IMG/VR virus record: IMGVR_UViG_3300028840_006907
Location: 352,001 to 416,000 of that record
DNA: 64,000 nt
From: a virus
Strand: one strand, 5' to 3'
Part shown: positions 6,235-62,299 of the stretch, piece by piece
Numbering within the stretch: the stretch's first letter is position 1
How the letters are laid out: the number at the start of each line of letters is the position of its first letter
The notes under the pieces: model-generated
The model's input: only the letters and a program-made list of their open reading frames with translations
What the model was told of the DNA's origin: nothing
Databases searched by the model: none
Program-made: the position numbers and the translations under genes

Positions 6235-6298
6235 AAAAATTCTTCCTTTATTAATCTATTAATATTCATCCTTCTTTAATAGCCTTAATAATAAGAAA

Positions 6299-6344
6299 GG
6301 GCTGTGATTTATCAATTGTTGATAAGGTCCCTTAATCTTTTTTT
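6299..6344 (+). terminator. Putative intrinsic terminator containing a TTATCAA-TTG-TTGATAA palindrome
   Basis: Inverted repeat 6309-6325 flanked by GGG/CCC, followed by a T7 run at 6338-6344. Confidence 0.4.
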
Positions 6345-6400
6345 GTTATGGCCATGAAAAAAGAATCAAATGGCTTTTATATAATTAAGGAGCTGATACT

Positions 6401-18800: not shown

Positions 18801-20126
18801 CAGGGAGAGGATTACATAGTAGAATGGGGTCATCTTGTATGGGATACTTATGATCTTGATGGTTTCCTTTCAGCGGGAGATACTTTAAGAGTAATTTTCT
18901 ACGGTCCTTTACAAAAGAAAGCATTAAATAATTTTGTTCTTCATGGGCATTATAGTAACTATAACCAGAATCAGGCAATTTTTGTATCACCGAGTGGAAG
19001 TGATAGCACTGATCTGGGAGGGGACGGGACCAATACAGGTGGAACTGGATCAAGAGATTTACCATACAGAACTATTAGTATGGCTCTGTCTCAATCAAAT
19101 TCGGGTGATAACATTGTAGCTATGGCTGGAGAGTATCCAGTATTTGATGGCCTTCAGGATCGGGTAATCGTTCCTGCCTTTGACCGGACCGCTGCAGTCA
19201 ATAGTTCAAAAAGGGTTTATGAGGATTTCTTTGCACAAAAAGATTTTAGAGCTTATGGTACAACTGAATATGATCCAACACCATGGGAATTTGATTATAC
19301 AGGAAATTCAGAAGTATTCGCAGGAGGAGGATTCTTAAACTTTACCTATGACGGATCGAACAGTGCTACAGCCACATCGACTTTTCAATTTACCAGTGAT
19401 TTTGAAGTAAGGGCTAATTTAAGAAATGCTGTGGATCCAATAACTCTTAGAGTAACTTCACCTGATACAACAGCCTTTATTAGTTATAACGAATCACAGT
19501 TTACTGCTGGTGTTATAAATACTGATAGTACAGTTATATGTAGTGCTGTGGCACATAGTGGTGATACTACTGAATCAGATGTTTTTGTTGTAGAATATAT
19601 TCCTGTAACATCGGATCATACTCGAAATAAATATGCCGAATTATCATATATTCCAGAGGGATCTGATTGTACCAATTTAGCTCTTAATGTTGTTGGGGGT
19701 AATACGCAGGATTTCGGTGAAGATTTCTATGTCCAAGATTCTAAAATTAAATGGGATGGTATGACAATGGATGGTGAAATAGAACCAGGTGAAGTTTTAA
19801 GAGCTGTTTACTTGGATCGACCTTTATCATTGGCTGTTACTGCTTCCATCACTCTTGAGAATGGTCTCTTTACTCTAAAGGCTTATGATGGTACTTGGAA
19901 TACTTTAATGAATAGAAGTTTGGTAGGAGATTATACCGGTAACTGGAATGTATCATTTACAATGGATACACCTAACGAAGAATTTAGTCATAATTGCATT
20001 TATGGTAAAGGATATGCGTCTCAATTCTTGGCAATAGCTGATTCTTTTGAGAATATTCAAGGTTTAGATAAGCCTTTGGCTGTCTCAACTGAGAGACGTA
20101 ATTTAGTTATATATGAAGAGAGGTAA
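12801..20126 (+). CDS. Giant fibre protein (2441 aa): DUF2341/LamG-like N-terminus plus three right-handed beta-helix-type modules
   Basis: N-terminus MAFMFRLTVD...NYPLLVDD...DIRYYSD...VEYSREIV; LamG motif FDGIIDEVRIVSD. Three modules end in the cap motif L(H/R)L..(G/N)SP.I..G..........D..G..R......(D/E)(I/M)GAY(E/Q), the first two being a large internal duplication. Confidence 0.8.
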   Translation: MAFMFRLTVDKDMVAGTDKSNYPLLVDDRVANFPSSFFSNVVDASGLDIRYYSDAAKSVEYSREIVTVDTTAQTFESWVQIPLLSASSDSTFYCEVGDATSANDFTIWDSQNHYRVFHLQDASDSGTLHDPLIVNNASSVSSKIQKGYDFSGTTHHLQCTTNPDFQQTYPFYISSWVNLRSLIVSPTFIDSVSCIFSREVICQTTLRNWIAFNFGIDSSQRLSWMCGENLSGCVLPGQHTDWYTSDNTVSLNQWIHVGAYIENLYTATPNRVVKLFVDGSQIPSTEGNLGDIVNYHNTHNLAQLSRIGAGYRQTGIPIQNFDGIIDEVRIVSDATIYSNGDWQQTEFNNQNDPSTYILAPDTTGVYFINAAGSSTYPYDTEAKGAVNLKDLLDSVSLNDGDIIEVSDAGGTIDDSAASPGNINASVTIRSYSGNTGNPTFKVRDSSYLFLFNGVTVDGVYIQNIDMYKAGTGSTSIAFIWFLTCDISNFEVTNCNFSITGTAGSVAAVELDTSDLHGTSRFEYNTITKMSAGLYIRDNCSVFEDFSASYNTYNDISYGSIKAFLLVGTLSTIQRIVVDNNYGTDSGLTFVFMAGTAGQTCDDIKIRNNVINSMDSFHFNTINLAAPTLTNSSVVNNSLFQAGGIFVNNADANLVVANNTLSRGSESWFIYAIQVTAAAGASFNNNNIYGYTNPYFVSGGITYGTSNTQLDPLYDSTSNLHLQAGSPCIKTGASYGVYSSVPTTGYDGTARQSLVCDIGAYETTPNTYFVNNGGSATYPFDTEIKGAVNFNQLLGVITLSNWDTVEVSNAGGTIDDSTAFPNFINAAVTIRSYANNTAKPVIHVKNTGASRESQFRWDNYPTVYSSDAVTIQNLQLYKSGPSPSQPFINARTWDFDTLEVTGCDFSVTDPTGAVSAVQGVYLDDCNINQSFTYQDSDSSGVDGALWITDTTTKTIQGVNISDHIFEGKYLFVYIQPDTLSDATIETNDVGGSILCAGTSINSSVAIRNNVVRSVSSLAPLGIYTTGAGQSVVNNTIRNIPVGGYGIRYLSGGANSYVLNNIVYRDDTVGAATGIETSFTAGVIDYNNVYNFGTPYVSGAVTPGPNSIQVDPIFISSTNLRLQSNSPCIRTGIGSGTYSVVPSVGYDGNPRSSATVDMGAYESLLPSGLFPPPLPIYGNYETPVSLGSGSGYYHKPADYLGQETKGGGAIKLVANSGNVSINGRIRMDGQDGTMTGGAAGGSVWLIGWRIDGTGTISADGGRTQLVSNSGGGSGGYISMWHHKTITYDGTATVDGYDGAGDGKIFIKEIEPILEEPFTGDILNIKWWDTTNSVTIDNELTFDSPNDNYNFPETLSEFNISGKEINVEADYTSLTPDSSQNTAAFLLWVDDLNWAGVARKFNGFFGISSINGAVSVSGVPFDNTNVTFRILKNDSTFTYQFWDATSTPQTIYMDYLPELANSVFKVKLTVDKPPLGDSLRTRYQRLTAFDISNQYLYMDGIPIDQSAVAMNSITGTSHYYGEDFYVDNYLLKWDYTASNFASLAAWGDVVRYQYEYNAPPTNEVTVAFDNVRVYEGVLSNAETTEPVIYVDPNYGSDTCSGRQLDPLKNLFVATAWAKKGSTVVLYDGTHNPTKVSRKDLTIRGAEGSIAGITSKNVQDSTGSNWERDALSFYGSQGIVENVHIFDSSRGIVVENGNYEISRNTITDTSNAVTFVKCDPRIIRNKILDVDFGLDFTSCRIAPYAYANIISNADVAVRANLTTDMTFSCNTFDNDQTHFLIDSSSSIIMSSNNLTYSVMPVIVSTDSWFGSYYNNFYPNTTQYNRTPDDATNNIVANPLYYDRIGKDFHLNTGSPNIGTGSLTYNDYLYDFDGADIRSAEIGAYQYIDSTKITSDYYVSSHGNDYWNFGRQTDPFRTLDRAMVDADSTVRIDGGHYDSFYLNLRSQDIHLNQLYIYLGPEQQFVSYITLDAEDASNKYVPLPSFVAPDDASHVAMNIIGSSAQIQGEDYIVEWGHLVWDTYDLDGFLSAGDTLRVIFYGPLQKKALNNFVLHGHYSNYNQNQAIFVSPSGSDSTDLGGDGTNTGGTGSRDLPYRTISMALSQSNSGDNIVAMAGEYPVFDGLQDRVIVPAFDRTAAVNSSKRVYEDFFAQKDFRAYGTTEYDPTPWEFDYTGNSEVFAGGGFLNFTYDGSNSATATSTFQFTSDFEVRANLRNAVDPITLRVTSPDTTAFISYNESQFTAGVINTDSTVICSAVAHSGDTTESDVFVVEYIPVTSDHTRNKYAELSYIPEGSDCTNLALNVVGGNTQDFGEDFYVQDSKIKWDGMTMDGEIEPGEVLRAVYLDRPLSLAVTASITLENGLFTLKAYDGTWNTLMNRSLVGDYTGNWNVSFTMDTPNEEFSHNCIYGKGYASQFLAIADSFENIQGLDKPLAVSTERRNLVIYEER

Positions 20127-32153: not shown

Positions 32154-32188
32154 ACTTTGTAGAAAATAAACTCTAAGGGGGTTTTAAA

Positions 32189-32869
32189 ATGGCTAGAGAT
32201 AATGATAGCTATATCTTTCGTAAAGGTGTAACGCCTAATACCCTCTCGGTTATAAGTTCGAAAAATCGAATATTCGCGTATAACCCTCAGGCTCAATTGG
32301 TACAACTAGGCGTAGTTGCAACTTTTGATCCTTCGGAGGCTCGAACAATAGAACCTGTTCGTGGAATCGGTTTTGGAGACCAAGTAGCCGAACTAGTGCC
32401 TAGTGTCACAGATCCGATGACAATATCGGTAACCAGAACTGCTTTGTATCTATCGAATATCTATCAGATATTTGGTTATAAAGCTGGTATGGATGGTATC
32501 TGTCGATCATTGAAACATCACAGATGGCCTTTTGATATCCGTCAAGAGGTGGTCTTTAGTGCACTGGCTACGAGGAGTGTTGGTGGTAGTACGGAGTATT
32601 TAGAGACACCAGCGGTAGTATCTACTGATGAGAAAGGTGAATACAATGAATTTGCTTTATTGACTTTCTATGAAGCATGTTGGATTTCCGATTATTCAGT
32701 ATCATACGCTTCTGATGCAGCTCTAGTACAAGAAACTGTGACACTTAATGTGTCTGATATTCTTGCTGATGCAGGTGAGTTCCCATGGAAGAGTGATGAG
32801 ATTGAACCTTATTCAGTACTGGATACAGATCCAGCTAAGTCGAAACGATTTGATATTGTTACAACTTAA
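32189..32869 (+). CDS. Putative tail tube protein
   Basis: Position immediately after sheath and before chaperone/TMP genes; 226 aa; no diagnostic motif. Confidence 0.4.
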   Translation: MARDNDSYIFRKGVTPNTLSVISSKNRIFAYNPQAQLVQLGVVATFDPSEARTIEPVRGIGFGDQVAELVPSVTDPMTISVTRTALYLSNIYQIFGYKAGMDGICRSLKHHRWPFDIRQEVVFSALATRSVGGSTEYLETPAVVSTDEKGEYNEFALLTFYEACWISDYSVSYASDAALVQETVTLNVSDILADAGEFPWKSDEIEPYSVLDTDPAKSKRFDIVTT

Positions 32870-37700: not shown

Positions 37701-38035
37701 CTTCAATGCCACAAAAACCAATTAAATATGTAGATCCTATGGAAGCTGCATATAGAAAAGAAATGGGCTATCAAGGTTTACAGAAACCTATTCAGGTAAC
37801 CTCACCTGGTAGTGCTGTTTTACATCCAGGAGAACTTATTCTTCCAAAGACTTATTCTGAATTTAAAGCAGTTCCAGCTATGAATGAACCTATGGGTGTT
37901 CATCCTGGTGGTGGAGTTGGAAGAGGTGCAAAGGAAATTACGATAAATGTTACTGCTACTGAAAAGGATCTAGCTAGTAAAATTGCCAATGAGGTTAGGG
38001 CTGTAATTAATCAGGAATATATAGGAGTGGCATAA
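34727..38035 (+). CDS. Tail tape measure protein (1102 aa)
   Basis: Long, K/E-rich helical protein with a Gly/Ala hydrophobic segment (GITKVIAGWPGAIFMALKAVWDVGMAADQF), downstream of sheath/tube/chaperones. Confidence 0.55.
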   Translation: MSLRQKLDEALDRIKDLEKKLKESGKEAKEFGELTEDAIKKSVKELGNLNNLLGKSVNTIKDMNKEVRDLHVAGALDTKEATDLNKGLERIAKQLIHIKKIKKEDRTWAEQRAEIKKLNKMIDQMRSKTNLARNSAKSFADHMEDAGPSFMKGWASFNKASKKGQTTIQSYQGMFNKAGNSLGKMPGLMKGFGSAAKGVSASLGGITKVIAGWPGAIFMALKAVWDVGMAADQFVKDANKAFASVRGPDIMTADVRKQFKTFNDQIFNARENIRVGLDVTQIRELMEAVVQAGANIQNLNKGLLSYRDAIYIAGKASKTLGLALPQVGSMVGKLLTNFRMDLESIDKAFVQVAFDAQKSGLSTDRFWTTVENASASLALYGTFIGAASKTMKRFTEDMVGGADDAAEATEDMYSVFKSGNLKAQATLLSMAKQAGVNLDDIFKNMSTEFKDQAVRLQSEIELMEAKGTKTPEDVAQLKRLRSELASAQSKSQRALDVVGKNAVSQTTEIGMLAKEAPQLLIETIRRMTNVGDLTKISRERMIVAIKALENVGVKEKTVRLLVEQAKVTKKSLENLLDSSENFFAENNKDFQLNRANIANAIMEASKPGKDQAANTQILVDLLKESLGMDQGMAETWANIIKTDKETANKIASRIEKGDKNSLKSIDGLLMASKFINKFQIATFKNQEKTDKELAKSSEETFDEIVKGTLSYNEMVKMGKDELYWTMANWKVATIMNKTVADIYYWLQGESTRLSQSQKLAQEQLKLMGQQNAGIGNLLKDVGEGNISAKTQVAMVQHVSQNLKDLQSAIAVEEGLQGAFENAMRSTDPSKALTNAIMAAEKDKDKKLANRLKEEKKNFEALRERKKGRLDEEKYFKNLAEANRSTLERNKQERGKQEEIKNKLVELNDINKKVFEIQKLKLMGDEKSLIAIADQIQATAGEDVNKIEKMATNMGLTLGDVKRAFEAKKISTVGIEKRMAARKIFKKTEKTLASMPQKPIKYVDPMEAAYRKEMGYQGLQKPIQVTSPGSAVLHPGELILPKTYSEFKAVPAMNEPMGVHPGGGVGRGAKEITINVTATEKDLASKIANEVRAVINQEYIGVA

Positions 38036-38036
38036 G

Positions 38037-38804
38037 ATGGCTTTAAGAAATAGGCGCTCATTTGCTTTAGAGAAGGAATTAAAAACTAACGCCTCAGACC
38101 GTCATTTTGTAAAAGCTTATGATAGCTATTTATATAATGCTCACGGTGTCTCAAAAAATGTTAATCGTGTCAGATTTTTTATGCAAGTAGTGGATTTAAA
38201 TGGTAAACCTGTCTCTTATACTATTGATGGTCAAGTATTTTTAGGACTCGTTTTATTAATCAATCCTTCGAGTATAAGTGTTAATTTATCTAAGATAGTA
38301 GGTAGAACACAAACAATGACAGGATGGGTAGAAGATCATTGGGGCGAAGAACTTGATACTTTATCCCTTCAGGGAAGCAGTGCTTCATTTATATGGGAAG
38401 GAGCAAATCTTCCTTCAACTAATCCGAAGTATGGTACACCTTTAACTCAATCTTCACAAGAGATCAGAGAGATGTTAAATAAATACATGAATATCCCTGA
38501 TTTGAATTTAACTGAACCCATCCAGCCAGGAGATCATAGTGGCTTGACAGTAAAGAGAAGACGTGAAACTTTATCTTATGATGAGTTCAGGGGTATCATG
38601 AAAATGATGAATGCCAATGCAGCCAAATTTGATGCCTATGGACAAGTGAGAGAACGTTTGTATATTCAATTATCTTATGATTATGCAGCCTATCGTGGCT
38701 ATTTTGAAAGTATTGATGTCACAGAAGATTCGGAAACTCCATATAAATTTATTTATACAATTACATTTAAAGCGGAAAAAACAATTTATAGTTTTTTGAG
38801 GTAA
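38037..38804 (+). CDS. Baseplate/tube-initiator-like protein, paralogue A
   Basis: Shares L(L/V)(I/V)NPS... and YDYAAYRGYFESIDVTEDSETPYKFIYTITF motifs with the next gene. Confidence 0.55.
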   Translation: MALRNRRSFALEKELKTNASDRHFVKAYDSYLYNAHGVSKNVNRVRFFMQVVDLNGKPVSYTIDGQVFLGLVLLINPSSISVNLSKIVGRTQTMTGWVEDHWGEELDTLSLQGSSASFIWEGANLPSTNPKYGTPLTQSSQEIREMLNKYMNIPDLNLTEPIQPGDHSGLTVKRRRETLSYDEFRGIMKMMNANAAKFDAYGQVRERLYIQLSYDYAAYRGYFESIDVTEDSETPYKFIYTITFKAEKTIYSFLR

Positions 38805-38808
38805 TTTA

Positions 38809-39651
38809 ATGGAACCAATAAGACGAGAAGGTGTTGATGACAGAGTAATTATCCGAAAAGAAACTGATACATTTTTGGATGGAGTAATCACAAATGGTTA
38901 TGCACAATTAAGATCTGATAGAGCTGATGAAGTTCTTCGGCAAGCTGGAGCCACTTTTACATCAGGTCTACCTGGATTTGGGGATAGTACTTCAGTAACT
39001 CAACCAAACCCATATTTAACAGGCGCTCTTACAGCTCTCCTTCCTATGAAAATAGCTATTGCTGATAAAGATGGTTTCCGACTATCATTTACATTATTAG
39101 TAAATCCTTCGAACATGAATCATGGTAAAACTTCTTCTGTATTCACAGATTATACTCGTGGAGGTTATATTACTCAATTATGGGGACCTAATCAAGATTT
39201 AATCTCATGTATAGGAAAGACCGCTGCCTTTATAGTGGAAGGAACGGGTTTAACTAATGTCTCTCGTCGAAGATCTTTTAGTTATATGAATTTTTTGTCT
39301 TTGATGTATGCTTATCGTAATAATGGATATCAATTTTTAGATCTTACCTCTTTTAAAGATACTTTGACAAGAGTTGTAAATGTTATTCATGGTGTGGAAT
39401 TATCTTATGACAATCATAATTTTATGGGCCATTTTAATAATTTTACTATCGATGAATCTGCTGATCGTCCTTATTTATTTGACTATAACTTTGAATTTGT
39501 AGTAAGTTCATTAAGTCGTGATTATAATGAAGTAAGAGGCCATTTTGTCCCTATAAAAGATGTAGGTTCAACTGAAGATGTGCCAAAACTGGTAAATAAT
39601 GTGACTGAAAATTCGGTAATAAGACCACTAGTAGGATTAGGGGGATTTTAA
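38809..39651 (+). CDS. Baseplate/tube-initiator-like protein, paralogue B
   Basis: LLVNPSNMNHGK... and YDNHNFMGHFNNFTIDESADRPYLFDYNFEF align with paralogue A; C-terminus GLGGF. Confidence 0.55.
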   Translation: MEPIRREGVDDRVIIRKETDTFLDGVITNGYAQLRSDRADEVLRQAGATFTSGLPGFGDSTSVTQPNPYLTGALTALLPMKIAIADKDGFRLSFTLLVNPSNMNHGKTSSVFTDYTRGGYITQLWGPNQDLISCIGKTAAFIVEGTGLTNVSRRRSFSYMNFLSLMYAYRNNGYQFLDLTSFKDTLTRVVNVIHGVELSYDNHNFMGHFNNFTIDESADRPYLFDYNFEFVVSSLSRDYNEVRGHFVPIKDVGSTEDVPKLVNNVTENSVIRPLVGLGGF

Positions 39652-41940
39652 ATGGCTAGTACTTTAAGTAGTGGATTATTTACATTAAAAGAATTTTATA
39701 ATCGTGGTGTGATAAAATTAGCTCCTGATGTCCTTGTTTATATCGGAGGAAGTTTAACTACATCTGTCATTGCACCGGTAAGTGGGAAAGATGATACCGT
39801 TTCATTTAATGATGGAATTACTTCAGTTAATGTACAAAATAATATTGATCCTCCAGGAACTTCTACAGCTACCATTGAAATTACTACTCCTATTTATGGA
39901 GAAAAATCGAAATATTGGACCTATTTTAAAGGGATCGATAGTAATTCTCCAGTTCGGGCTCCTTTATTTGTTCCCATGATGGAAGTAAAGATTTATTATA
40001 AGGGTCGGTTTATGGTTAATGGAAGTCCAAAATATTATCCAGCTTTTTGGGGATTCATAACAAATGTGGAAGAAAATTATTCAGGAGGTGTGTATAAGAT
40101 CAACCTGACTTGTGCTGATACTCTTCATTGGTGGGGTTATAGTACTATTAATATTCACCCTATTTCTGAAGCTAATATTATGTCAGGTGGTAATTTAATA
40201 TTAACTGCTTTTTCCACTATTTTTAGAAGATTAAATCCTTATCAGATTTTGTATAAACTCACTACTGATATGGGAATGCATCAATTTGTAACCTCAGCTT
40301 GGGCCGGTCAGAAAACTCCTTTAAATAGCATTTATCCTACGGGTTTGTTTAGAAAAGTAACTCAGGGTATAATGGCGTATTGGCAACAGCGTTTTGCTAA
40401 TATGGGTAGTTTGCTAAAAATGTATGGAATAAATGGTAAACGTGTAGATCGGAATGGTGTTCAGGAAAGACAACCTGAAATCTATGTTCCGAAAAAACCC
40501 GGAAATTCTCTTCAACAAAAAGCTACTGAGCCTCAGGATAAAAGTCTTTTTAGTTTAGATAGAAATTATATTCGTCAATTTGAGATATTTGTTGATTATG
40601 ATGATATGGGTGGTTGGGATAATTCTGAATACATGACTAAACTTCAGATTGCTACTGAGGTAAAAACTAAAACTGATTTTGAATTTTATCAAGATGTCGA
40701 TGGCAATTTTATATTTAAACCACCTTTTTATAATTTAAATGTTAAAGGTGTCCTTCCTTATACTCTTCTTCCTAGTGATATAATAAATTATACCCATAGC
40801 ACTGATACTGAAGGTTTAATTACAGTGATGACTGTTAATACTCCTTTAGATAAAAATTTACGCACAACAACATATGCTCTTGGAAAAGGTTTCCATATGG
40901 ATATTGATTTAGCAAAAAGATTCGGTATTCGACATCAGGAAATGACCATGGAATATATAAATAATCAGGCTTTGGCAAGAACTCTTGCATTGGGAGAGAT
41001 GAATAAAATTAATTCCAAAGCGACAACAGGAAGTGTCACTATTCCTGGACGTCCTGAGATCCGATTAGGTTATCCTGTTTACATAGAGCATCGGGATAGT
41101 TTCCATTATGTCAGAGCTATTAATCATGCCTTTGAATATGGTGGAACTTTCACAACAACTTTATCTCTTGAGACTGAAAGAGTAAAGATATATGATCCTG
41201 ATGATAATTGGGAACCATATTTGGATAAAGTTTATTCTTATACTGGTAAAGCAGCTCCGAAAGATCCGAAAAAAGATCCTAATGTTGATACTCCTCCTAC
41301 TATAGCAGTGACACAAGATGTTGAAAAGAAGCAACAGGATTTAATGGTAGGTGAAAGAGTTTTACATTCTATGCAACAGGGTAAATATGCTCTTGTAGAT
41401 CGTCAAGGTGATAGTCAGTTATCTGCAACATCGACAACAGTACCTTATACTGATGAATTCGGTTATAGAGTAGTTGGTTCTTTTCCTTATGGTCGGGCAT
41501 TAAATCCAGTAAGTGTTGTTACGAATACAGATGATTTACCTTATTTAAAAGAAACTTATTTAACTACAATGGCAAGACCTGTTCATGAGTATGAGTCTGA
41601 AAGTATGAATATTCTGTTTTTTGACGATAAAGATGGTGCAGTTCCAAATTATTTAAATCTAGAAAATCGCCAATTACCTAGAATATTAGGTGCATTTAAA
41701 GATACTGATTTAGATAATGAATATGATCTCGAAAGTACTGTTCAGACAGAATCGCAAAGAAGAAGAAATAAAGGTGATGATAGTAAAAAAGAATTAACAA
41801 ATGATAAAATAATTGATATTACATCTGCGAGACCTCCAAAATCCGATGTTCCTCCTGGAGAGAGTAAAAAGATATTATCGGATTTACGTGATGACAGTGT
41901 GCCTGAAGCTAGAACATTGAGTGGGATCGGAGGATTTTAA
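39652..41940 (+). CDS. Putative baseplate hub protein (762 aa)
   Basis: Positional call after TMP and before the spike; C-terminus GIGGF; start coupled to the previous stop. Confidence 0.5.
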   Translation: MASTLSSGLFTLKEFYNRGVIKLAPDVLVYIGGSLTTSVIAPVSGKDDTVSFNDGITSVNVQNNIDPPGTSTATIEITTPIYGEKSKYWTYFKGIDSNSPVRAPLFVPMMEVKIYYKGRFMVNGSPKYYPAFWGFITNVEENYSGGVYKINLTCADTLHWWGYSTINIHPISEANIMSGGNLILTAFSTIFRRLNPYQILYKLTTDMGMHQFVTSAWAGQKTPLNSIYPTGLFRKVTQGIMAYWQQRFANMGSLLKMYGINGKRVDRNGVQERQPEIYVPKKPGNSLQQKATEPQDKSLFSLDRNYIRQFEIFVDYDDMGGWDNSEYMTKLQIATEVKTKTDFEFYQDVDGNFIFKPPFYNLNVKGVLPYTLLPSDIINYTHSTDTEGLITVMTVNTPLDKNLRTTTYALGKGFHMDIDLAKRFGIRHQEMTMEYINNQALARTLALGEMNKINSKATTGSVTIPGRPEIRLGYPVYIEHRDSFHYVRAINHAFEYGGTFTTTLSLETERVKIYDPDDNWEPYLDKVYSYTGKAAPKDPKKDPNVDTPPTIAVTQDVEKKQQDLMVGERVLHSMQQGKYALVDRQGDSQLSATSTTVPYTDEFGYRVVGSFPYGRALNPVSVVTNTDDLPYLKETYLTTMARPVHEYESESMNILFFDDKDGAVPNYLNLENRQLPRILGAFKDTDLDNEYDLESTVQTESQRRRNKGDDSKKELTNDKIIDITSARPPKSDVPPGESKKILSDLRDDSVPEARTLSGIGGF

Positions 41941-43872
41941 ATGAGGAATAGATATTATGCTCCTGGCGAAAAACCTCATAGTTCTTTCATAGATAGAAAT
42001 AATCAATATTTTTATGTTAGAACGGGTGTTATTGAAGAAATCGATCTTGATAAATATACAATGACTGTTAGATGGGAACCAGGTAATGGTAGTAGAGACC
42101 ATGTCCCAATAAGTTTTCCTTACGCAGGTCCGGCAGGATTTATTGGGATGTTGCCAGAAAAAGGATCATTCGGAATTTTTGGATGGTATAATTCTGGAGT
42201 GGGTGGTGGAAGTCCTCTATTATTAAGTTATCTTCCAGCAGGTCTTGATGCAGGATTAAATTATAATGTTGTTAAGATACATCCTGATGCTATTCCTACG
42301 AGTGATGTAAATGAGATTTTATTTAAATTCAGAAAATTGGGATTAAATGATTTGGTCATAGCTTCCCCATCGGGAGCTGAAATTACTTTAAATGCTAATT
42401 TAGAATTACGTGATGGTTCTCAAGATACTTTTTTAATCCGTGATGAAGATCAATCAATTATTGCTACTTCTCTAAATAATTTCATTTTTGCTGATGGTGT
42501 AGCGGTAAGTGCTGGTCCCGCAATGAGAAATAGCCTTGTACTCTATGATAAAAATGGAAAAAAGATAAGAAATAACGGTAGTCTCGTATCTCTTCCGGAT
42601 GGAAAAGAAAACATTTATATAGTTCCTAATGGTGAAGATATCACTTATGATACTCAATACTATTCTGAATATCGGGTTGATGTAGATGAATTGGTTGATG
42701 GAAAATTAGATCTTAATGACATTAATAGTTCTTCTCCATTATCAACAAGAGATCCTCTTATAACTTTAGCAATGGGTAATTACATAGGAGCTGATCGAAC
42801 TAATCCTCAACAGTATGGAGAAATATTAAAAGCAGTCCTTTTTTCTTCTCCAAATGATATAAAGGGAAACTTCGGTTTAGAAAAGGCGATACGAGATAAT
42901 GCCATGGATGAACCTTCTATTATAGGTCTCGCTTATGCTTTACATTCTTTGAAATCAGGGTGTTTTATTGGAATCGATAAAGAAGGCCATTATTATATGA
43001 ATCTCCCAGCATCGAAAACAAATCCTTTAGGTGCCGGAAGATCGATGTCTACCCTGGCTCAAGGTAATTTAAAAGAGATATGGGGAGGAGAAGCTTTAAT
43101 AAATAACTCTTGGGATTTGGCTACAGCGGGTGGAGTTCGTTGGAATATTGGTGCTCATAACACTAATTTAAGAGGTCGAAGTATTGATATAAAGACTTCT
43201 CAAGGTATAAATGTCGAAATAAATGGGAATGATGATGACGGTTATGCCAGAAAAGAGAAGATCAAAGGGAATACATATGAGAATGTTGGGGGCAACAAAA
43301 CTGAAGTTAGTTCGAATTTAACTCTTGTTATAAATGGGTTGAAGACTGAGAATATAGGTGGTTCTCATACTCAATCTATACAGAGTGACAAAAGTGTTAA
43401 TGTGTTGGGAGTTTATTCAGAAACAGTTTCGAAAGAGAAGCAACAAAAATATGGGAGTAGAAAGACTGTCATAACTCCTCAAGGTAATGATGAATTGGAA
43501 GTTAATGCAGGTGATATCCAACACACAATAACTACATTCGGTCAAAAGAAATTGTCTGTAAACGGTGGGAATATTCAACAAAACATTGGAAATGGAGTTT
43601 ATGAGACTCTTATAAAATTAGGAAGTTATACTCTTGATGTAAAGACAGGATCGATAGAAATAAAAACTGCACTAGGTACTGTAACAGTTTCGGGAACTTC
43701 AGTAGAGATAAAGGGTTCAGTTTCTGTAAGTGTTGATGCTCCAGTAGTAAAATTAGGACAAAATGCACCTATAGGAGGAGTTGTAACAGGTCTTCCTGGA
43801 ATACCTTCTCATGCGGATTATGTGACAGGTGCTCCTCTAAAAGGAAGTTTAAAAGTAAGTGCAACGGCTTAA
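41941..43872 (+). CDS. Central spike protein (gp5/VgrG-like) with C-terminal beta-helix repeats
   Basis: C-terminal short V/I-x-V/I-x-G-N repeats (GNTYENVGGNKTEVSSNLTLVINGLKTENIGGSHTQSIQSDKSVNVLGVYSETVS...); position after hub. Confidence 0.5.
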   Translation: MRNRYYAPGEKPHSSFIDRNNQYFYVRTGVIEEIDLDKYTMTVRWEPGNGSRDHVPISFPYAGPAGFIGMLPEKGSFGIFGWYNSGVGGGSPLLLSYLPAGLDAGLNYNVVKIHPDAIPTSDVNEILFKFRKLGLNDLVIASPSGAEITLNANLELRDGSQDTFLIRDEDQSIIATSLNNFIFADGVAVSAGPAMRNSLVLYDKNGKKIRNNGSLVSLPDGKENIYIVPNGEDITYDTQYYSEYRVDVDELVDGKLDLNDINSSSPLSTRDPLITLAMGNYIGADRTNPQQYGEILKAVLFSSPNDIKGNFGLEKAIRDNAMDEPSIIGLAYALHSLKSGCFIGIDKEGHYYMNLPASKTNPLGAGRSMSTLAQGNLKEIWGGEALINNSWDLATAGGVRWNIGAHNTNLRGRSIDIKTSQGINVEINGNDDDGYARKEKIKGNTYENVGGNKTEVSSNLTLVINGLKTENIGGSHTQSIQSDKSVNVLGVYSETVSKEKQQKYGSRKTVITPQGNDELEVNAGDIQHTITTFGQKKLSVNGGNIQQNIGNGVYETLIKLGSYTLDVKTGSIEIKTALGTVTVSGTSVEIKGSVSVSVDAPVVKLGQNAPIGGVVTGLPGIPSHADYVTGAPLKGSLKVSATA

Positions 43873-43882
43873 GGATCAATAA

Positions 43883-44491
43883 ATGCCATTAGTACCACAA
43901 ACAATGAAAAGTTTTATAATAGTCAAGGCGTCATCCTTAACTATAGCAGGGGATAAATTATCTTATTTTGTCTCAGCTATTGCTAGTGCTACTTGTCAAT
44001 ATATTCTTTCAGCTTCAACTGTAAATAGTACTAATATTGCACTAGGGCCAGGAGGTGGAACACAGACGGGGAAAGTGGTAGGATTAGTCCCTTCTGGTAT
44101 GAGTGCACTAATGATGGCACGAGCAACCGCTAATGGGCTTTCTGGAAGAGATTTAAAGAAAGTTTTTGATTCTATTTCTTTTGGGGTGGTGAATGCTATG
44201 AAGGCTGTTGTACTTCAAGGAACAATCATAGGAGCTGGTCCTGGGACTGGGACAGGGAAAATTATAGGTTTAGTTCCTTCTGCTCTTCAGAATTTAATAT
44301 ATGCTCAATCTGCTTTTAGATTGATTTCAGGAGATAAATTAAGGCCAATATTATCAGCTATAGCTTTTGGTATATGTAATCATATAATGTCGGCGGGTAC
44401 AGTAAATGCAACTGACATAGGAGCTGCAGCCGGACCACCTGCAGGCCCAGTAACGATACCTGCTGCACCAGGAATAGGGAAACTTGTATAA
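43883..44491 (+). CDS. Gly-rich protein with three internal ~60-aa repeats (possible spike tip or baseplate component)
   Basis: Repeats GDKLSYFVSAIASATCQYILSASTVNSTNIALGPGGG... / GRDLKKVFDSISFGVVNAMKAVVLQGTIIGAGPGTG... / GDKLRPILSAIAFGICNHIMSAGTVNATDIGAAAGPPAG... Confidence 0.6.
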   Translation: MPLVPQTMKSFIIVKASSLTIAGDKLSYFVSAIASATCQYILSASTVNSTNIALGPGGGTQTGKVVGLVPSGMSALMMARATANGLSGRDLKKVFDSISFGVVNAMKAVVLQGTIIGAGPGTGTGKIIGLVPSALQNLIYAQSAFRLISGDKLRPILSAIAFGICNHIMSAGTVNATDIGAAAGPPAGPVTIPAAPGIGKLV

Positions 44492-47400
44492 ATGAGTACT
44501 GATTTAAATACACTGTTATCGTATAATACGATAGATCTTGAATTTTTTGAAATACGTGGATCAAGATCGGGAGTCAATAATGCTCGTACAACAGGTGTTG
44601 TTTATGTAAACGGGCAATATGTTCCAGGAAAGAGTGATGTCACAGGAAGTGGGACTTTTGCTAGTGATGATACTGTTAGTGGATTTTCATTTGGAGCACC
44701 CTATGGTGCTTTAACTACTTCTTCATTAAAAGTGGGAGATAATCTTACTGCTGACTCCACTATTTTTAGAATAGCAAATATCGATTCTTCTACCAGTTTT
44801 CAACTTGAAAGTGCTTCGGGTCTGACAGGGGTTTATCCTATACAATTTGATATGGGTCAAAGAGAATATGTTGTAGAGCCAGATACAATAACAAATACTT
44901 CGACCGGTACAGCTAGCTTTACTTCTGGAGATAAGACTGTAATAAATACAGGTCCTTCTTGGTCAGGGATAATAGCCCCAGGTGATTTTATAAAACATGA
45001 TGGATATCAAGAATATTTTAGAATAGCTGCGGTACCTTCTGGGACATCATTAACATTAGAGAATTCTTATTCAGGTGATACTACGAGTGGTTCCTATACT
45101 GCTAAGAAATGGGTTATAGGTAGAACCAGAATTCAGTATGCTAAAAATGATATAACTTATGATGATCAGGCAGCGAAGTGGAAATATGGGGCTATAGAGG
45201 CTGATGATCTTACTACTTCTACGAATTTTACTCCTCTAGTAGATGGAGTTACATTAAAATTTTCTCGTGCCTTAAATACTAATGATCCAGATTTAATGGA
45301 TGTGGCTGTTACAGAGAATACCATTTTTGCCAGAGAGACTAAATATGAAACGTTTCAGTTTGCTCTTCCTGTAGTTCCTTTTCCTGAATCTTCTATGAAA
45401 CTTTGGATTAATAGTGTCGAACAAACGATGTATCAAGATTATGTATTATCCTATTCTCAGAATCCTTTATATGTTTTACCTCCTCCTCCAAATGAGCGTT
45501 TTGTGGCTAATATAATGTTTTTAACAGAATTATCAAACAGCCCAAGTACAGAATTAACAGCATTAGGAGAGTTCAATATTACTGATTCTTCTGGTAATTC
45601 GATAGGAGGAATATATCCGGGATCTTTTTCATTGACTGTTGATGGTACTACTCAGGTTCCTTATAGAGATTATGTATTGGAAGGGAATTCTGGGACTATC
45701 AATATTATAGATTCAACTGTAAATGAAGAGATAGTAAAATATGTAGGTTCTGATTATAGTGATTATATCGATTATGGTTTTAAAGTTTATTTAAATGGGA
45801 TAGAACAAAAAATTTCTTTTCCTGCTGAAATTGATGATGATATTCTTTTTCAGGTTGCTATAGGAAGGTTAAAACCTCGTGATAAGGACCATCCGGGACC
45901 TGGTGAAATTTATCAAATAAATTATATGGTTGAATCAAATCCTGTTTCTGATGAGCTTATTGTAGGAACTGATGGTGGAACTGTCATTGCTACGAGTTCT
46001 TATCCGATAAAGCAAGATTCTATTTTGTTAATAAAAAATGATACAATTCTTACAGAAGATGAGGATTATTTTGTTAGTTATTTAACTGGTAGAATTTCTC
46101 TTATAGACACTCTTACTTCCCAGGATAATTTTTCTATAAGCTATACTCCTCTTTCAAAACAGGTTAATAATTTATTTTATACAGATAACGCTTGGTATTG
46201 TACAGTAAATGATTCTAGGTTAACAATAGTAGATGCTGATAATTATAGATTTAGTTTAATAAATCTTAGCCTGGATGCTGGTGAGATCCAAATTAATCGC
46301 ATTTATAATGAGACAAGAGATGGGGATTATGATTTAACAAATATCCAGACAGAGGGACCGACTCTTTTATTGGAGAAAAATGCTACTAATACTTCTATAG
46401 GATTAAAATCAACTGATGTTGTACTAATTGATTATACTTTTGAAAGTGAATCAACGGAATATTATCCGGTTGTTGTAAATAATTTAAATATAACTGAAGG
46501 GGTAAAAACTGTTTATATAGAAGGGTCTGACCTGACTTCATTTATAGATGCAAGTTCGATTCTCACTCTTGCTAGACCTGATTCTGCTGTGCAATATTAT
46601 CATACCATTTTAAGTTCTTCTTATGATAATTACGGTACAAGAATAAATATTGAAACACCTATTTTTGAAGATATAATAAACCCAAAAATGTTTATAGGTG
46701 ATAGTGCTCCTACTTATTTAAGTGTTCCTTTAACGGCTGGTCCTATTATAAGTGGTTCTACCAATATTTCTTTTTTTGGTGATAATATTCAAAATATTTT
46801 TCGAAGTAAAACAATTCTTGATGTAAGTAATGATTTATATCAAGTAGCAAGTGCTTCGTATGATAGTGATACTACCACAACCACGGTTAATCTGAGATCA
46901 GGAATATTATATGATCGAACAGACTCTACAGATTTATCAAGTTTAAAATATAGTGATAACCCATATTATCTTGAAGGTGATACAGAGATTTATGCTTCAG
47001 AAACGATAGCGACTTTATCTGATCAACCAGGTTTCATAATGAATTATAATAGTGATCAGATAATAGAAATTACAACTACTGAATCTGATTTGACTGTTGA
47101 TGGAACCTCTTTCTCATATAATACTTATCCGACTTTAAGTGATCTTTCAGGTGCTATGACGGTTATTCCGTCGTTGGCTGTTACTACATATATCCCAGCG
47201 TGGCAGAGTAGTAAAATTGAACTAGTGACTGAATTGTCTGTTTTCAGGGACTCAAGTACTGTATTAAATGTCTCAAATGCTTTAAGATATAAAAGTATTG
47301 ATGCTACTGCTTTTGTTGATACTACGGATTATTCAATAAGTAATAGAGGTACAGTTATTTTAGATAACCCTCTTGTAAGAGGAGATAAATATAATCTTGA

Positions 47401-49834
47401 TTACATGGGTTTGGAATTTCTTGGTAATAAACAAGTCAGTTATACTGCAGGTTATTTTGATTCATTACCTGCAAAATCAGAAGTAAAGGCTTCCTTTCAA
47501 TTTGTTAATTTAGATCAATTTTATATCCAGGTTTTAGATCAGAGAGATTTCTTTAGTTCAGTGACTATTCCTCGAATGAGGGAAGAAGCGATTCAACTTA
47601 GTGGTAGTGTAGGTCAAGGTGGTGAAGTTATTGGTGATGAAGGTAACGATAATGCTTCTGGAGGAATCACTGGTGATGAATATGCTCGACAGGACATGGA
47701 AATAGAATGTCGTGTATTCCAGAATATCTATGATTTTTTCAGTAATCGATTAGAGGCTTATGGCGATGAAATGGAGGCATCTGTAGGTCTGAAATTATTT
47801 AATAATGATGGTATATTTACACAGCAAGAACAGGATGCTGCGAATAAAACTGTCAGTAGAATTTTTCCAGATGTTGATAATACTAATTTTGAACCGATGG
47901 AAGTGAACCCATTAACAGGTTACTTTTTTGACAATGGTGCAAAATTTGTTAATGGTTCAACAACTGTGACTAGTACAGGTAATACTCTTTGGACATTACA
48001 ATTAAATAATTCGGGTTATATTGGTAGCGCAGATTCAACGAAAAGATATCAAATAAATAGTATCACTAATAATGCTGAACTTGAATTGACTACCTCTTAT
48101 GGAGAAAATTCCTCTAATGTTAATGATGGCGAACGCTATACTGCAGTAAATACTGATTACCCAGTTTATGATGATGACGGTTTTGTAGGGGCAAGAATAA
48201 TAGGGACAAGAGCGAGTAATTTTGGTTTAATAAATGGAGACACATTTGAAATATTTCTTGATGGGACGGATTTAACTCATAAGAAGACATATACTTTTTT
48301 AGATACTTTTTTTCCAGTAGCCAATTTAAATGGACCATTGGTAGCAGGATTATTATCAACAATTAATGGTTTAAGTTGTACATACGAGTCGGTTCTTGAT
48401 CCTACTACAACTTATGGTTATCGTTCCACTTTAGTTTTTAGGACAGATTCAACTGTTAATTATATGAAACTTGGTGATACCACTACGACAACTAAATTAG
48501 GATTTGTAAGAGATGATACTGTTTATGGGAATTATGATAGATTAAATTATAGCTCATCTGCTATTTCACTTAATTTAGTCCCTCCTGAAGCAATTTTAGA
48601 TTCGAGTGAAGCGCATGCCATCGGTGAAGAATTAGGTTATCAGAGTTCATTAATTGCTTTAGGAAGTCCTGATAAGTTAAATCGAATAAGTCCAGCAGGT
48701 CTTATTTTTGCAAGTGAGATTTATAATTCTGCCTCATCTCAGGTAGATCTAATTTATCAAGAGATTCCGAAAATAGAAGAACAAATCACTGCTACAGGTC
48801 TTATTATTGCAGAGGAAGATATTCCTTCTGCTGATACTTCCACAGCTCATTTAAATGCAACTTTAATGTTGGCTGATACCAGTGCTGCATTAATCGATGC
48901 TACAGGAATTATTACCGATTGGCAAGGGAAAGGAACCGATTGGGAATGGGTTTCAGATTTTACACAACATAGTGTATTTATTCGTGGTAAAGACAGTACC
49001 AATGTTGGTGTTCCGGTTTCATCCGGACCTGGCATTACAAATATTGATGGTCAGCAATCTTTTATTCTTCAGGCACCTGCTGGATATGATCGAAGAATAT
49101 TGAATAATACAATTTTTTCTGTTACGTATTATCCTGCAATAGTAGATGCTACAAGTAATATCCCTTTTGATGGGACATGGACAGGATGGGGCATTTACGG
49201 TTATAGTAATAACAATGAAATTACATTTACTTTAGATCAACCTAATATGATCTTTCTTAATAACGTTTCAATGGCTGGGACTAATCAGAGATATATTACT
49301 GATAGTACAGCTTTGAATATTTTGTGGGATGTAGGACCAAGTACGACAACAGTAACATTTCCGTATGCAACTTATGCAACGGTCTCTAGTATGAAAATTG
49401 CTTTAAATACTATTTCAGGATTAAGTGCTACTGGACCTGCAATACATGATGCAAGTATTTGTAAAGCATTTTTAATATTGCCTCCTCAATCAATCACTCC
49501 TGATGCCACGGTTTATCCAGGATTGAGAGATGCTACAGTAGCATATCAGACAATTTCTGATATGATGCTTGCAGACAGAACTAATTTTGCCAGTGATCGA
49601 AGTAATTTTCTTGTAAACAGAATAGATTATTTAACAAATACTAGAAATACACAGATAAAAAATGCTATAAAAAATGAACAACTTTTACTCGATAATGGAG
49701 AACCCAGTGATCTTTATAATTGGGCAAATAACAGATTTAATAGGAGACAAGGGTGTTACGCAAAACTCAAACAAATAGAGCAACAAATAGCTTCAAACGA
49801 GTCAGCTCTTCAAATAAACAAGAGTTTCTTTTAA
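44492..49834 (+). CDS. Giant baseplate/fibre structural protein (1780 aa)
   Basis: Long ORF starting 1 nt after the previous stop; beta-rich, S/T/N-rich; no diagnostic motif. Confidence 0.75.
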   Translation: MSTDLNTLLSYNTIDLEFFEIRGSRSGVNNARTTGVVYVNGQYVPGKSDVTGSGTFASDDTVSGFSFGAPYGALTTSSLKVGDNLTADSTIFRIANIDSSTSFQLESASGLTGVYPIQFDMGQREYVVEPDTITNTSTGTASFTSGDKTVINTGPSWSGIIAPGDFIKHDGYQEYFRIAAVPSGTSLTLENSYSGDTTSGSYTAKKWVIGRTRIQYAKNDITYDDQAAKWKYGAIEADDLTTSTNFTPLVDGVTLKFSRALNTNDPDLMDVAVTENTIFARETKYETFQFALPVVPFPESSMKLWINSVEQTMYQDYVLSYSQNPLYVLPPPPNERFVANIMFLTELSNSPSTELTALGEFNITDSSGNSIGGIYPGSFSLTVDGTTQVPYRDYVLEGNSGTINIIDSTVNEEIVKYVGSDYSDYIDYGFKVYLNGIEQKISFPAEIDDDILFQVAIGRLKPRDKDHPGPGEIYQINYMVESNPVSDELIVGTDGGTVIATSSYPIKQDSILLIKNDTILTEDEDYFVSYLTGRISLIDTLTSQDNFSISYTPLSKQVNNLFYTDNAWYCTVNDSRLTIVDADNYRFSLINLSLDAGEIQINRIYNETRDGDYDLTNIQTEGPTLLLEKNATNTSIGLKSTDVVLIDYTFESESTEYYPVVVNNLNITEGVKTVYIEGSDLTSFIDASSILTLARPDSAVQYYHTILSSSYDNYGTRINIETPIFEDIINPKMFIGDSAPTYLSVPLTAGPIISGSTNISFFGDNIQNIFRSKTILDVSNDLYQVASASYDSDTTTTTVNLRSGILYDRTDSTDLSSLKYSDNPYYLEGDTEIYASETIATLSDQPGFIMNYNSDQIIEITTTESDLTVDGTSFSYNTYPTLSDLSGAMTVIPSLAVTTYIPAWQSSKIELVTELSVFRDSSTVLNVSNALRYKSIDATAFVDTTDYSISNRGTVILDNPLVRGDKYNLDYMGLEFLGNKQVSYTAGYFDSLPAKSEVKASFQFVNLDQFYIQVLDQRDFFSSVTIPRMREEAIQLSGSVGQGGEVIGDEGNDNASGGITGDEYARQDMEIECRVFQNIYDFFSNRLEAYGDEMEASVGLKLFNNDGIFTQQEQDAANKTVSRIFPDVDNTNFEPMEVNPLTGYFFDNGAKFVNGSTTVTSTGNTLWTLQLNNSGYIGSADSTKRYQINSITNNAELELTTSYGENSSNVNDGERYTAVNTDYPVYDDDGFVGARIIGTRASNFGLINGDTFEIFLDGTDLTHKKTYTFLDTFFPVANLNGPLVAGLLSTINGLSCTYESVLDPTTTYGYRSTLVFRTDSTVNYMKLGDTTTTTKLGFVRDDTVYGNYDRLNYSSSAISLNLVPPEAILDSSEAHAIGEELGYQSSLIALGSPDKLNRISPAGLIFASEIYNSASSQVDLIYQEIPKIEEQITATGLIIAEEDIPSADTSTAHLNATLMLADTSAALIDATGIITDWQGKGTDWEWVSDFTQHSVFIRGKDSTNVGVPVSSGPGITNIDGQQSFILQAPAGYDRRILNNTIFSVTYYPAIVDATSNIPFDGTWTGWGIYGYSNNNEITFTLDQPNMIFLNNVSMAGTNQRYITDSTALNILWDVGPSTTTVTFPYATYATVSSMKIALNTISGLSATGPAIHDASICKAFLILPPQSITPDATVYPGLRDATVAYQTISDMMLADRTNFASDRSNFLVNRIDYLTNTRNTQIKNAIKNEQLLLDNGEPSDLYNWANNRFNRRQGCYAKLKQIEQQIASNESALQINKSFF

Positions 49835-61520: not shown

Positions 61521-61532
61521 AGGATTTTAAAT

Positions 61533-61907
61533 ATGTTAACAACTACAGGATTTAATAATTTTGGATTTGAAGTATCAGATACTACGTTAAGTGTTCTTCC
61601 TGGTACTGCCAGAGTTGGAAGCAAATTATTAAAGTTTGATGGATCACGGGTTTTATTTGACAATATTACCAATTTTGGAGTGGAAACTTTTTCTTATCAG
61701 AATACTTTATTATATTTGCAGAATGTTGGTGACGTAGCTGATATGACTCAATCGAGATCTGATGTTACCAGTTCAGCATTATCAATAGATATCCCTGCTC
61801 TTCCTACTAATGCCAGTGGCCATTATGCTGATGAATATCCTTTGGGACTCTTTACCTTTTACAAAGATGCATCGGATGTAAGTTTGTATAAATATAACCA
61901 GATTTAA
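61533..61907 (+). CDS. Hypothetical small protein after the fibre gene
   Basis: 124-aa ORF, 12 nt after the fibre stop. Confidence 0.55.
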   Translation: MLTTTGFNNFGFEVSDTTLSVLPGTARVGSKLLKFDGSRVLFDNITNFGVETFSYQNTLLYLQNVGDVADMTQSRSDVTSSALSIDIPALPTNASGHYADEYPLGLFTFYKDASDVSLYKYNQI

Positions 61908-62299
61908 TATTTACTTAAAAGATCTTTTTTAAAATCAGGAATTTTCTGGGTTATAGTAGGCAATAATTCTTTTATTATTGTACTGTTTAATTGCTGTAAT
62001 TTCTCACAATATTCATTTTGAGCATCCAGAACAGTTTCAGTACATTCATCTTTTAGTGCCTTTTCTTTTTCATGATGTAATTGTTTTAATTCTTCTACAG
62101 CTTTATTGAAACTGTTTTCAAAACGTACTTTCATTTTAATTGCTAAACTTTCTAAGGATTTCTCTACAAAAGCATTAATAATTTCTTCGTAATCGTCATC
62201 CTCACCAAAACATTCCTTTATTTGATCACATACAAATTCTTTTTCATTTTTTATGACTTCATCAAGCCAACCATCATCAAAAGGTCTTGAGTATTCCAT
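61904..62299 (-). CDS. Hypothetical acidic protein, the only minus-strand gene in the window
   Basis: 131-aa ORF with AAGGA about 9 nt upstream of its ATG on the minus strand; its stop overlaps the stop of the convergent 61533 gene. Confidence 0.5.
   Translation of the reverse strand: MEYSRPFDDGWLDEVIKNEKEFVCDQIKECFGEDDDYEEIINAFVEKSLESLAIKMKVRFENSFNKAVEELKQLHHEKEKALKDECTETVLDAQNEYCEKLQQLNSTIIKELLPTITQKIPDFKKDLLSKY

Follow-up and report, generated by a model that had tools for sequence, protein, structure and literature searches.

Gly-Gly-Phe gene endings as probable translated ribosome-binding sites in the tail operon of a megaphage

Within the late tail operon of a megaphage, two successive junctions between genes are very probably Shine-Dalgarno (SD)-spacer-start units that happen to be translated, as part of an ordinary tight packing of genes. 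At these junctions the same nucleotides specify the end of one protein and an SD motif, spacer and start codon for the next, the SD motif keeps its position relative to the start codon among close relatives, the Gly codons involved are restricted to those ending in a purine, and the 15-mer recurs in other phages, without conservation of the ending at the level of the protein. The SD (GGRGG, 7 nucleotides (nt) before ATG) and an A/U-rich spacer would be contained in the three final codons plus stop of the upstream gene, with TTT and TAA serving as spacer. The reading frame would then render GGR-GGR-TTT-TAA as Gly-Gly-Phe-stop, and these residues would be passengers of a ribosome-binding site (RBS) rather than a functional protein motif. 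The two junctions would look alike because both are near the consensus RBS of this phage, having converged, with neither copied from the other.

Genes and sequences at the two junctions

The DNA analysed (the window) is a stretch of 64,000 nt, positions 352,001 to 416,000 of the IMG/VR record IMGVR_UViG_3300028840_006907. It corresponds to the structural module, encoded on the plus strand, of a very large phage, and identical proteins occur on a contig of 469,617 bp. The genes are ordered as probable sheath, tape measure, and then those for proteins of 255, 280, 762, 643, 202 and 1780 amino acids (aa). The main features are:

28157, plus strand: probable sheath gene, weak Pfam match
34727, plus strand: tape measure gene, PHROG 167
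38809..39651, plus strand: 280-aa gene; C-terminus ...VIRPLVGLGGF-stop, codons gga tta ggg gga ttt taa, then ATG
39640..39654, plus strand: junction 1, GGG GGA TTT TAA ATG (GGGGGATTTTAAATG); Gly-Gly-Phe-stop of the 280-aa gene together with an SD motif (GGGGGA), an A/U spacer of 7 nt and the start of the hub gene
39652..41940, plus strand: 762-aa gene, baseplate hub; C-terminus ...EARTLSGIGGF-stop, codons ggg atc gga gga ttt taa, then ATG
41929..41943, plus strand: junction 2, GGA GGA TTT TAA ATG (GGAGGATTTTAAATG); Gly-Gly-Phe-stop of the hub gene together with an SD motif, spacer and the start of the 643-aa gene
41941..43872, plus strand: 643-aa gene, candidate central spike, gp5-like
44489..44494, plus strand: a third TAAATG junction with a gap of 0, between the 202-aa and 1780-aa genes; upstream ending ...GIGKLV-stop, without Gly-Gly-Phe (GGF)

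Both the sequence and the listing of open reading frames (ORFs) place TAA directly against ATG at junctions 1 and 2 (stop-start gap of 0 nt), and the endings ...GLGGF and ...GIGGF with an abutting ATG, as described in the earlier note, are confirmed. The genes at 38809, 39652 and 41941 share one reading frame in which TAA is the sole separator. The SD motif lies within the 3' end of the upstream gene, approximately 6-8 nt 5' of ATG, as GGGGGA at junction 1 and GGAGGA at junction 2, and the two 15-mers agree at 14 of 15 nt, with a single difference. The annotated start codons are upheld by homologues that begin at an aligned Met: for the hub, MASTLGSGIF..., with M1, G8 and F10 invariant in alignment A1, and for the 643-aa protein, MAKNRYYAPG and MNHRYYAPGE (M..RYYAPGE).

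Searches of the 280-aa and 762-aa proteins against Pfam and PHROGs returned essentially no matches, and a fold search was therefore needed. As modelled, the 280-aa protein is a tube-fold baseplate protein resembling tube initiators; the family with which it was compared is the tail tube initiator, Pfam PF23980, membership being defined by a score above the Pfam gathering score. The 762-aa protein is, in its predicted fold, a baseplate hub protein of the Mu gp44/T4 gp27 type, with the tandem tube-like beta-barrel domains that define the hub fold. The 643-aa protein is probably a gp5-like central spike, a weak assignment that draws on PHROG 430 ‘baseplate hub subunit and tail lysozyme’ (E = 4e-4) and on a Pfam Gp5_trimer_C score of 18.4 bits, which is under the cutoff. 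The products of the 280-aa and 762-aa genes, tube-fold baseplate protein and hub, are components of one complex and belong to the central hub, and the label ‘baseplate subunits’ previously given to them is therefore right. In relation to the hub modules of other contractile tails (Mu gp43/gp44/gp45; T4 gp48-gp54/gp27/gp5), the proteins here are much larger and without Pfam matches, and the 762-aa hub is extended at its C-terminus by a disordered stretch of about 90 aa. Conservation is poor over the last 60-90 hub residues, which are modelled with pLDDT values of 30-45, and the last nine residues of the 280-aa protein have pLDDT <50 in the structure model. Homology between the 280-aa and 762-aa families as the cause of their shared tails was rejected (hhalign probability 0.1%, E = 0.53), and a MAFFT co-alignment of the tails is suggestive only for a short P-R-I-L motif. 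Megablast of positions 38000-44500 against 50,697 phage records found no near-identical DNA. Only two distant jumbo-phage protein matches were found, Tunturi_5 and LR745208; in Tunturi_5, a cultured jumbo phage, the gene order is the same and the two genes overlap by 4 nt.

The junctions in related genomes

The relatives sampled comprise 240 homologous proteins, 120 per family, and about 165 related loci. Junction 1 was compared at the DNA level in eight clade genomes (the window, L001, L002, L164, L165, L166, L167 and L168), L003 and L092 having the same sequence there as L001 and being counted once with it:

Window: GGG GGA TTT TAA ATG; ending ...GGF-stop
L002, L164, L165, L166: GGA GGA TTT TAA ATG; ending ...GGF-stop
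L001 (= L003, L092): GGA GGG TTT TAA ATG; ending ...GGF-stop
L167: GGG GGG AGA TGA tt ATG; ending ...GGR-stop, with a TGA stop and a 2-nt gap
L168: GCA GGA GGA GAT GAA T-ATG-CC-TAG; ending ...AGGDEYA-stop, with an 8-nt overlap, the stop lying 8 nt past ATG

The arrangement GGR GGR TTT TAA ATG is kept in six of the eight (window, L001, L002, L164, L165 and L166), and GGRGG stays about 7 nt from ATG in all eight, while the position of the stop and the last residues vary (L167, L168). Both Gly codons at this junction are GGA or GGG in 16 of 16 cases, with A/G changes present among them; in the genes of the window as a whole, Gly is encoded by GGT (52.8%), GGA (31.8%), GGG (10.6%) and GGC (4.8%), so that GGR makes up 42.4%. 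The fixed distance from GGRGG to ATG as the stop moves, together with the use of GGA and GGG only, upholds the earlier proposal that one stretch of 15 nt is at once a C-terminus and an SD-spacer-start unit. Tight junctions (-8 to +4 nt) predominate at this position, accounting for 47 of the 90 distinct junctions among the relatives. Conservation does not extend to the in-frame layout, the gaps ranging from -8 to +48.

The GGF ending itself is far less widespread. Within the 280-aa family it is present in 6 of 120 members, all of them among the nine closest (at least 70% identity), and in none of the other 111. Within the 762-aa family it occurs once in 120, in the window's own protein. The description of the GGF codons as ‘conserved’ consequently does not hold for the 762-aa family and applies to six of the nine closest members in the 280-aa family; as for the junctions as a whole, conservation was found for junction 1 in close relatives only, whereas no sampled relative has junction 2 in its GGF form. 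At 84% identity (L002) the hub ends in YPPF-stop and is followed by a 25-nt noncoding spacer with its own SD, AAAGGAATATAAATG; at 80% identity (L003) it ends in TFSR-stop, followed by a 48-nt noncoding spacer, again with its own SD. In both relatives the SD lies at the same distance to ATG as in the window, the AGGA of L002 is in register with the GGAGGA of the window, and a conserved TTACGT anchor lies 51 nt from ATG in the window versus 49 nt in L002. As read from these alignments, the RBS at junction 2 stayed in place and the end of the ORF shifted.

There is, though, a likeness between the two tails that goes beyond the needs of an SD: both proteins end in R-x-L-x-G-[LI]-G-G-F, and all GGF-type variants of junction 1 encode G-x-G-G-F. 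The Gly at -5 is kept in every one of these variants with GGT as well as GGA codons, so SD pressure is no explanation for it. This Gly and the R-x-L pattern constitute a small residue without explanation under the SD reading.

Consensus ribosome-binding sites and the origin of the likeness

The presence of an SD within the end of the upstream gene is a general feature of this operon and its relatives. An SD-like tetramer 4-10 nt 5' of the start was found at 65 of 119 distinct tight junctions (-8 to +4 nt), counted over four consecutive gene pairs in about 160 related loci, compared with 16.6% at internal in-frame controls; in the window the corresponding values are 8 of 12 tight junctions and 10.5% of controls. 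Other upstream genes at SD-bearing tight junctions of the window end in, e.g. ...VQVGL, ...YEER, ...TARK, ...IGVA or ...FLR before the stop. Across independent relatives, 45 of 59 Gly codons (76%) placed 3-11 nt upstream of the following start are GGR, versus 1099 of 2091 (53%) internally (Fisher p = 3e-4).

The 15-mer itself is close to the consensus RBS of this phage. Over 34 starts in the window, that consensus consists of purines (G/A) at -12 to -8 and of A/T only from there to ATG. Two intergenic RBSs illustrate the same design:

32177..32191, plus strand: RBS of the start at 32189, GGGGGTTTTAAAATG; same shape as junction 1, the upstream gene ending 35 nt before
61521..61535, plus strand: RBS of the start at 61533, AGGATTTTAAATATG; SD and TTTTAAA spacer, as in the junctions

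Two copies of GGRGGRTTTTAAATG are present in the window versus 0.08 expected from dinucleotide shuffles; shuffled DNA is the wrong null model, though, because both junctions are RBSs. Among the 561 pairs that the start-site 15-mers of the window can form, none is closer than junctions 1 and 2; next, at two mismatches, comes junction 1 paired with the intergenic RBS at 32189. Sampling 34 sites from a position-weight matrix of the window's RBSs gives a pair within one mismatch in only about 10% of trials, which tells somewhat against convergence. The match is therefore unusual for random DNA, and only mildly so for two RBSs of this phage.

Outside the window, at least 120 IMG/VR contigs contain the exact 15-mer of junction 2; in at least 86 of these an ORF of 60 codons or more starts at its ATG, and in at least 15 of the latter the 15-mer additionally closes an upstream ORF with ...GGF-stop. 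Two pairs among the latter contigs have near-identical tails, and the upstream contexts are otherwise mostly unrelated (EQGGF, QKGGF, IVGGF, CLGGF, SFGGF, GGGGF, PFGGF, NFGGF and others). This recurrence indicates that Gly-Gly-Phe-stop-Met is a by-product of a common phage RBS that arises repeatedly and independently.

The closeness of the two 15-mers in the window could also reflect copying, whereby junction 2 derives from junction 1 by micro-duplication or ectopic gene conversion of some 15-25 nt, the source being the same genome or a relative infecting the same cell, and the two GGF units would then be homologous DNA. Junction 2 arose recently, being absent at 84% and 80% identity, it matches junction 1 of L165 at 20 of 22 nt (our count), and the R-x-L-x-G-[LI]-G-G-F pattern is common to both tails. 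Outside the 15-mer, however, identity falls to about 50% (9 of 18 nt over the six preceding codons, our count), and residues that are shared are written with different codons (cta/ttg, gga/ggg), which disfavours copying because a copy made after the approximately 16% protein divergence from L002 should not show such differences. The region 5' of junction 2 moreover aligns position by position with the tail plus spacer of L002, the 15-mer is a generic phage RBS that gave rise to GGF endings at least 15 times independently, and the matrix yields a pair this close in about a tenth of trials. Copying is accordingly unlikely as well as unnecessary, though it keeps a small probability for a tract of about 16 nt or less. 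Convergence fits better than duplication, as the similarity fades beyond 15 nt. The ‘duplicated junction’ of the earlier note is not supported: the likeness is confined to the RBS core (14 of 15 nt, and about half upstream), closely related genomes lack it at junction 2, and the 15-mer with its GGF ending is met in unrelated phages.

A functional C-terminal peptide is a quite improbable source of the likeness. In that case G-x-G-G-F on the tube-initiator-like protein and on the hub would serve, e.g. as a docking strand for a common baseplate partner, and the overlap with the SD would be secondary. Both proteins do belong to one assembly, the Gly at -5 is retained with mixed codons in all GGF variants, and a P-R-[IL]-L-[GN] motif lies further upstream in the tails of both families. 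On the other hand, the ending is missing from 119 of 120 hub homologues and from the 280-aa family below 70% identity (the totals of 1 and 6 in 120 are not those of a conserved C-terminal motif), and in L167 and L168, whose C-termini have changed, the position of GG follows ATG instead of the protein end. Disorder is predicted for the tails, and the restriction of third bases to purines is a signature of nucleic acid. A more specific form, in which R-x-L-x-G-[LI]-G-G-F and the upstream P-R-[IL]-L-[GN]-D make up a short linear docking peptide by which two non-homologous megaphage hub components bind one partner, the SD overlap having been co-opted later in this lineage, is highly improbable.

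Recoding, either as a +1 frameshift of the prfB (RF2) type (SD, UUU, U, stop) or as readthrough fusing the three genes, was rejected and is extremely improbable: an SD-like run just 5' of UUU-UAA, with four U in a row, and three genes in one frame parted by TAA alone give a superficial likeness to the G-run, U-rich codon and stop of prfB, but the +1 frame closes after five codons at junction 1 (AAA TGG CTA GTA CTT TAA) and one codon at junction 2 (AAA TGA), the in-frame layout is lost in relatives, TAA ends 30 of the 34 genes of the window and is therefore not reassigned, the downstream gene starts at an in-frame ATG of its own, and the spacing between SD and shift codon, 1 nt here, is wrong for membership of that class. 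In prfB this spacing is 3 nt.

Translation across the junctions and relation to known systems

Taking the junctions as translated RBSs, a ribosome terminating at UAA would sit right on the next AUG, and reinitiation would be possible, aided by pairing of SD and anti-SD; free 30S subunits could probably also initiate at these sites. Initiation de novo would be equally possible because the SD sites are strong, open and without occluding structure. Folding predicts no structure that would mask the RBS of junction 2 (z = 0.07), and for both junctions the surrounding 60 nt fold no more stably than shuffled sequence. At junction 1 a 100-nt fold reaches z = -2.96 in the window, with the SD and AUG lying in a loop, and this fold lacks conservation, six relatives together giving a consensus of -4.6 kcal/mol without compensatory pairs. 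From motif, position and codon choice, use of the SD at both junctions is inferred, and translational coupling across them, as proposed in the earlier note, is plausible.

This architecture is already known, as a common way of packing phage genes and not as a special duplicated signal. In most prokaryotic groups, overlapping or adjacent gene pairs typically have the SD within the terminal part of the upstream gene, where it often aids termination-reinitiation (PMC6728339; PMC12548453), and such pairs are reported often to encode subunits of heteromeric complexes (PMC10666635). The junctions described here resemble the coupled pairs with intragenic SDs (Huber et al. 2019, PMC6728339; 2025 review, PMC12548453) in that the genes are co-directional with a stop-start distance near 0, the upstream gene contains the SD of its downstream neighbour in its final codons and is thereby constrained in its C-terminal codons, and the products belong to one heteromeric complex. 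They differ in distance, the classic values being -4 (ATGA) and -1 (TAATG, TGATG), compared with 0 (TAAATG) here, and in having no predicted structure that masks the RBS, so that de novo initiation may contribute. For genes VII/IX of f1, genes V/VII of IKe and coat/lysis of MS2 (PMC12548453), RNA unfolding or scanning has been demonstrated, whereas the present junctions are known from sequence alone.

The significance of these findings beyond annotation is little. For three unannotated megaphage genes they supply roles, namely tube-fold baseplate protein, hub and probable spike, and they may caution those who search for motifs or recode phage genomes synonymously. Junction 1 provides a clean natural example of an SD that stays fixed to the start codon even though the stop codon and the last residues of the protein drift, and where phage genes abut, the first interpretation to consider for a C-terminal ‘motif’ is a translated ribosome-binding site.

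Motifs and fused domains in the two baseplate protein families

The tube-fold baseplate protein of 280 aa and the baseplate hub of 762 aa each carry a short motif of moderate conservation, which lies in both families within poorly modelled C-terminal parts:

39583-39603, residues 259-265 in the 280-aa protein, family motif P-R-[IL]-[LV]-[NSG]-D-[VLI]
41677-41703, residues 676-684 in the 762-aa hub, family motif P-[RT]-[IV]-L-G-x-[IL]-x-D

The pattern P[RK][ILV][LV] is present in two of the 34 window proteins, namely these two, and hhalign detected no homology between the two families. The motif common to both might represent a shared docking peptide. In the hub family and the 280-aa family alike, some homologues are fused to cell-wall hydrolase domains, namely SLT (PF01464), glucosaminidase (PF01832) and VanY (PF02557), as exemplified by the collected proteins P0064, P0075, P0082, P0089 and P0090; P0177, P0192, P0205, P0208 and P0211. 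The hub and 280-aa proteins of the window are devoid of SLT, glucosaminidase and VanY domains.

Base composition, large ORFs and a probable module boundary

Three large open reading frames and one of opposite orientation stand out in the window:

6401-10318, ORF of 1305 aa within a stretch of high G+C and high skew
12801-20126, very large ORF of 2441 aa, structural module
44492-49834, very large ORF of 1780 aa, structural module
61904-62299, minus strand; about 62 kb of unbroken plus-strand genes precede this ORF, the first sizeable one of opposite orientation

The stretch 6001-10000 has a clearly raised G+C content (0.40-0.44 versus about 0.35) and a GC skew of 0.27-0.30, the maximum of the window. 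The 1780-aa protein has no match in Pfam. In the last 2 kb of the window the GC skew falls to about 0, and this drop, together with the minus-strand ORF, probably marks a module boundary.

Genes and junctions downstream of the hub

A third TAAATG junction with a gap of 0, in addition to those after the 280-aa and 762-aa genes, is formed downstream of the hub, and the relative L002, at 84% identity, has an extra gene in this region:

44489-44494, third TAAATG junction, between the 202-aa and 1780-aa genes
L002 7719-9122, additional 467-aa ORF with a Pfam match to Phage_endo_I (PF05367), flanked by the orthologues of the window's genes 41941 and 43883

At this third junction the 202-aa protein ends in ...PGIGKLV*, and upstream of it only a distant GGGAAA is found. 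The 467-aa ORF, which follows the spike-like gene, precedes the 202-aa gene and lacks a counterpart in the window, looks like a mobile endonuclease insertion.

The 280-, 762- and 643-aa genes are consecutive and in the same frame (window 38809-43872), separated by lone TAA codons. This same-frame layout is not kept in relatives. Readthrough at those TAA codons would join the products of all three genes.
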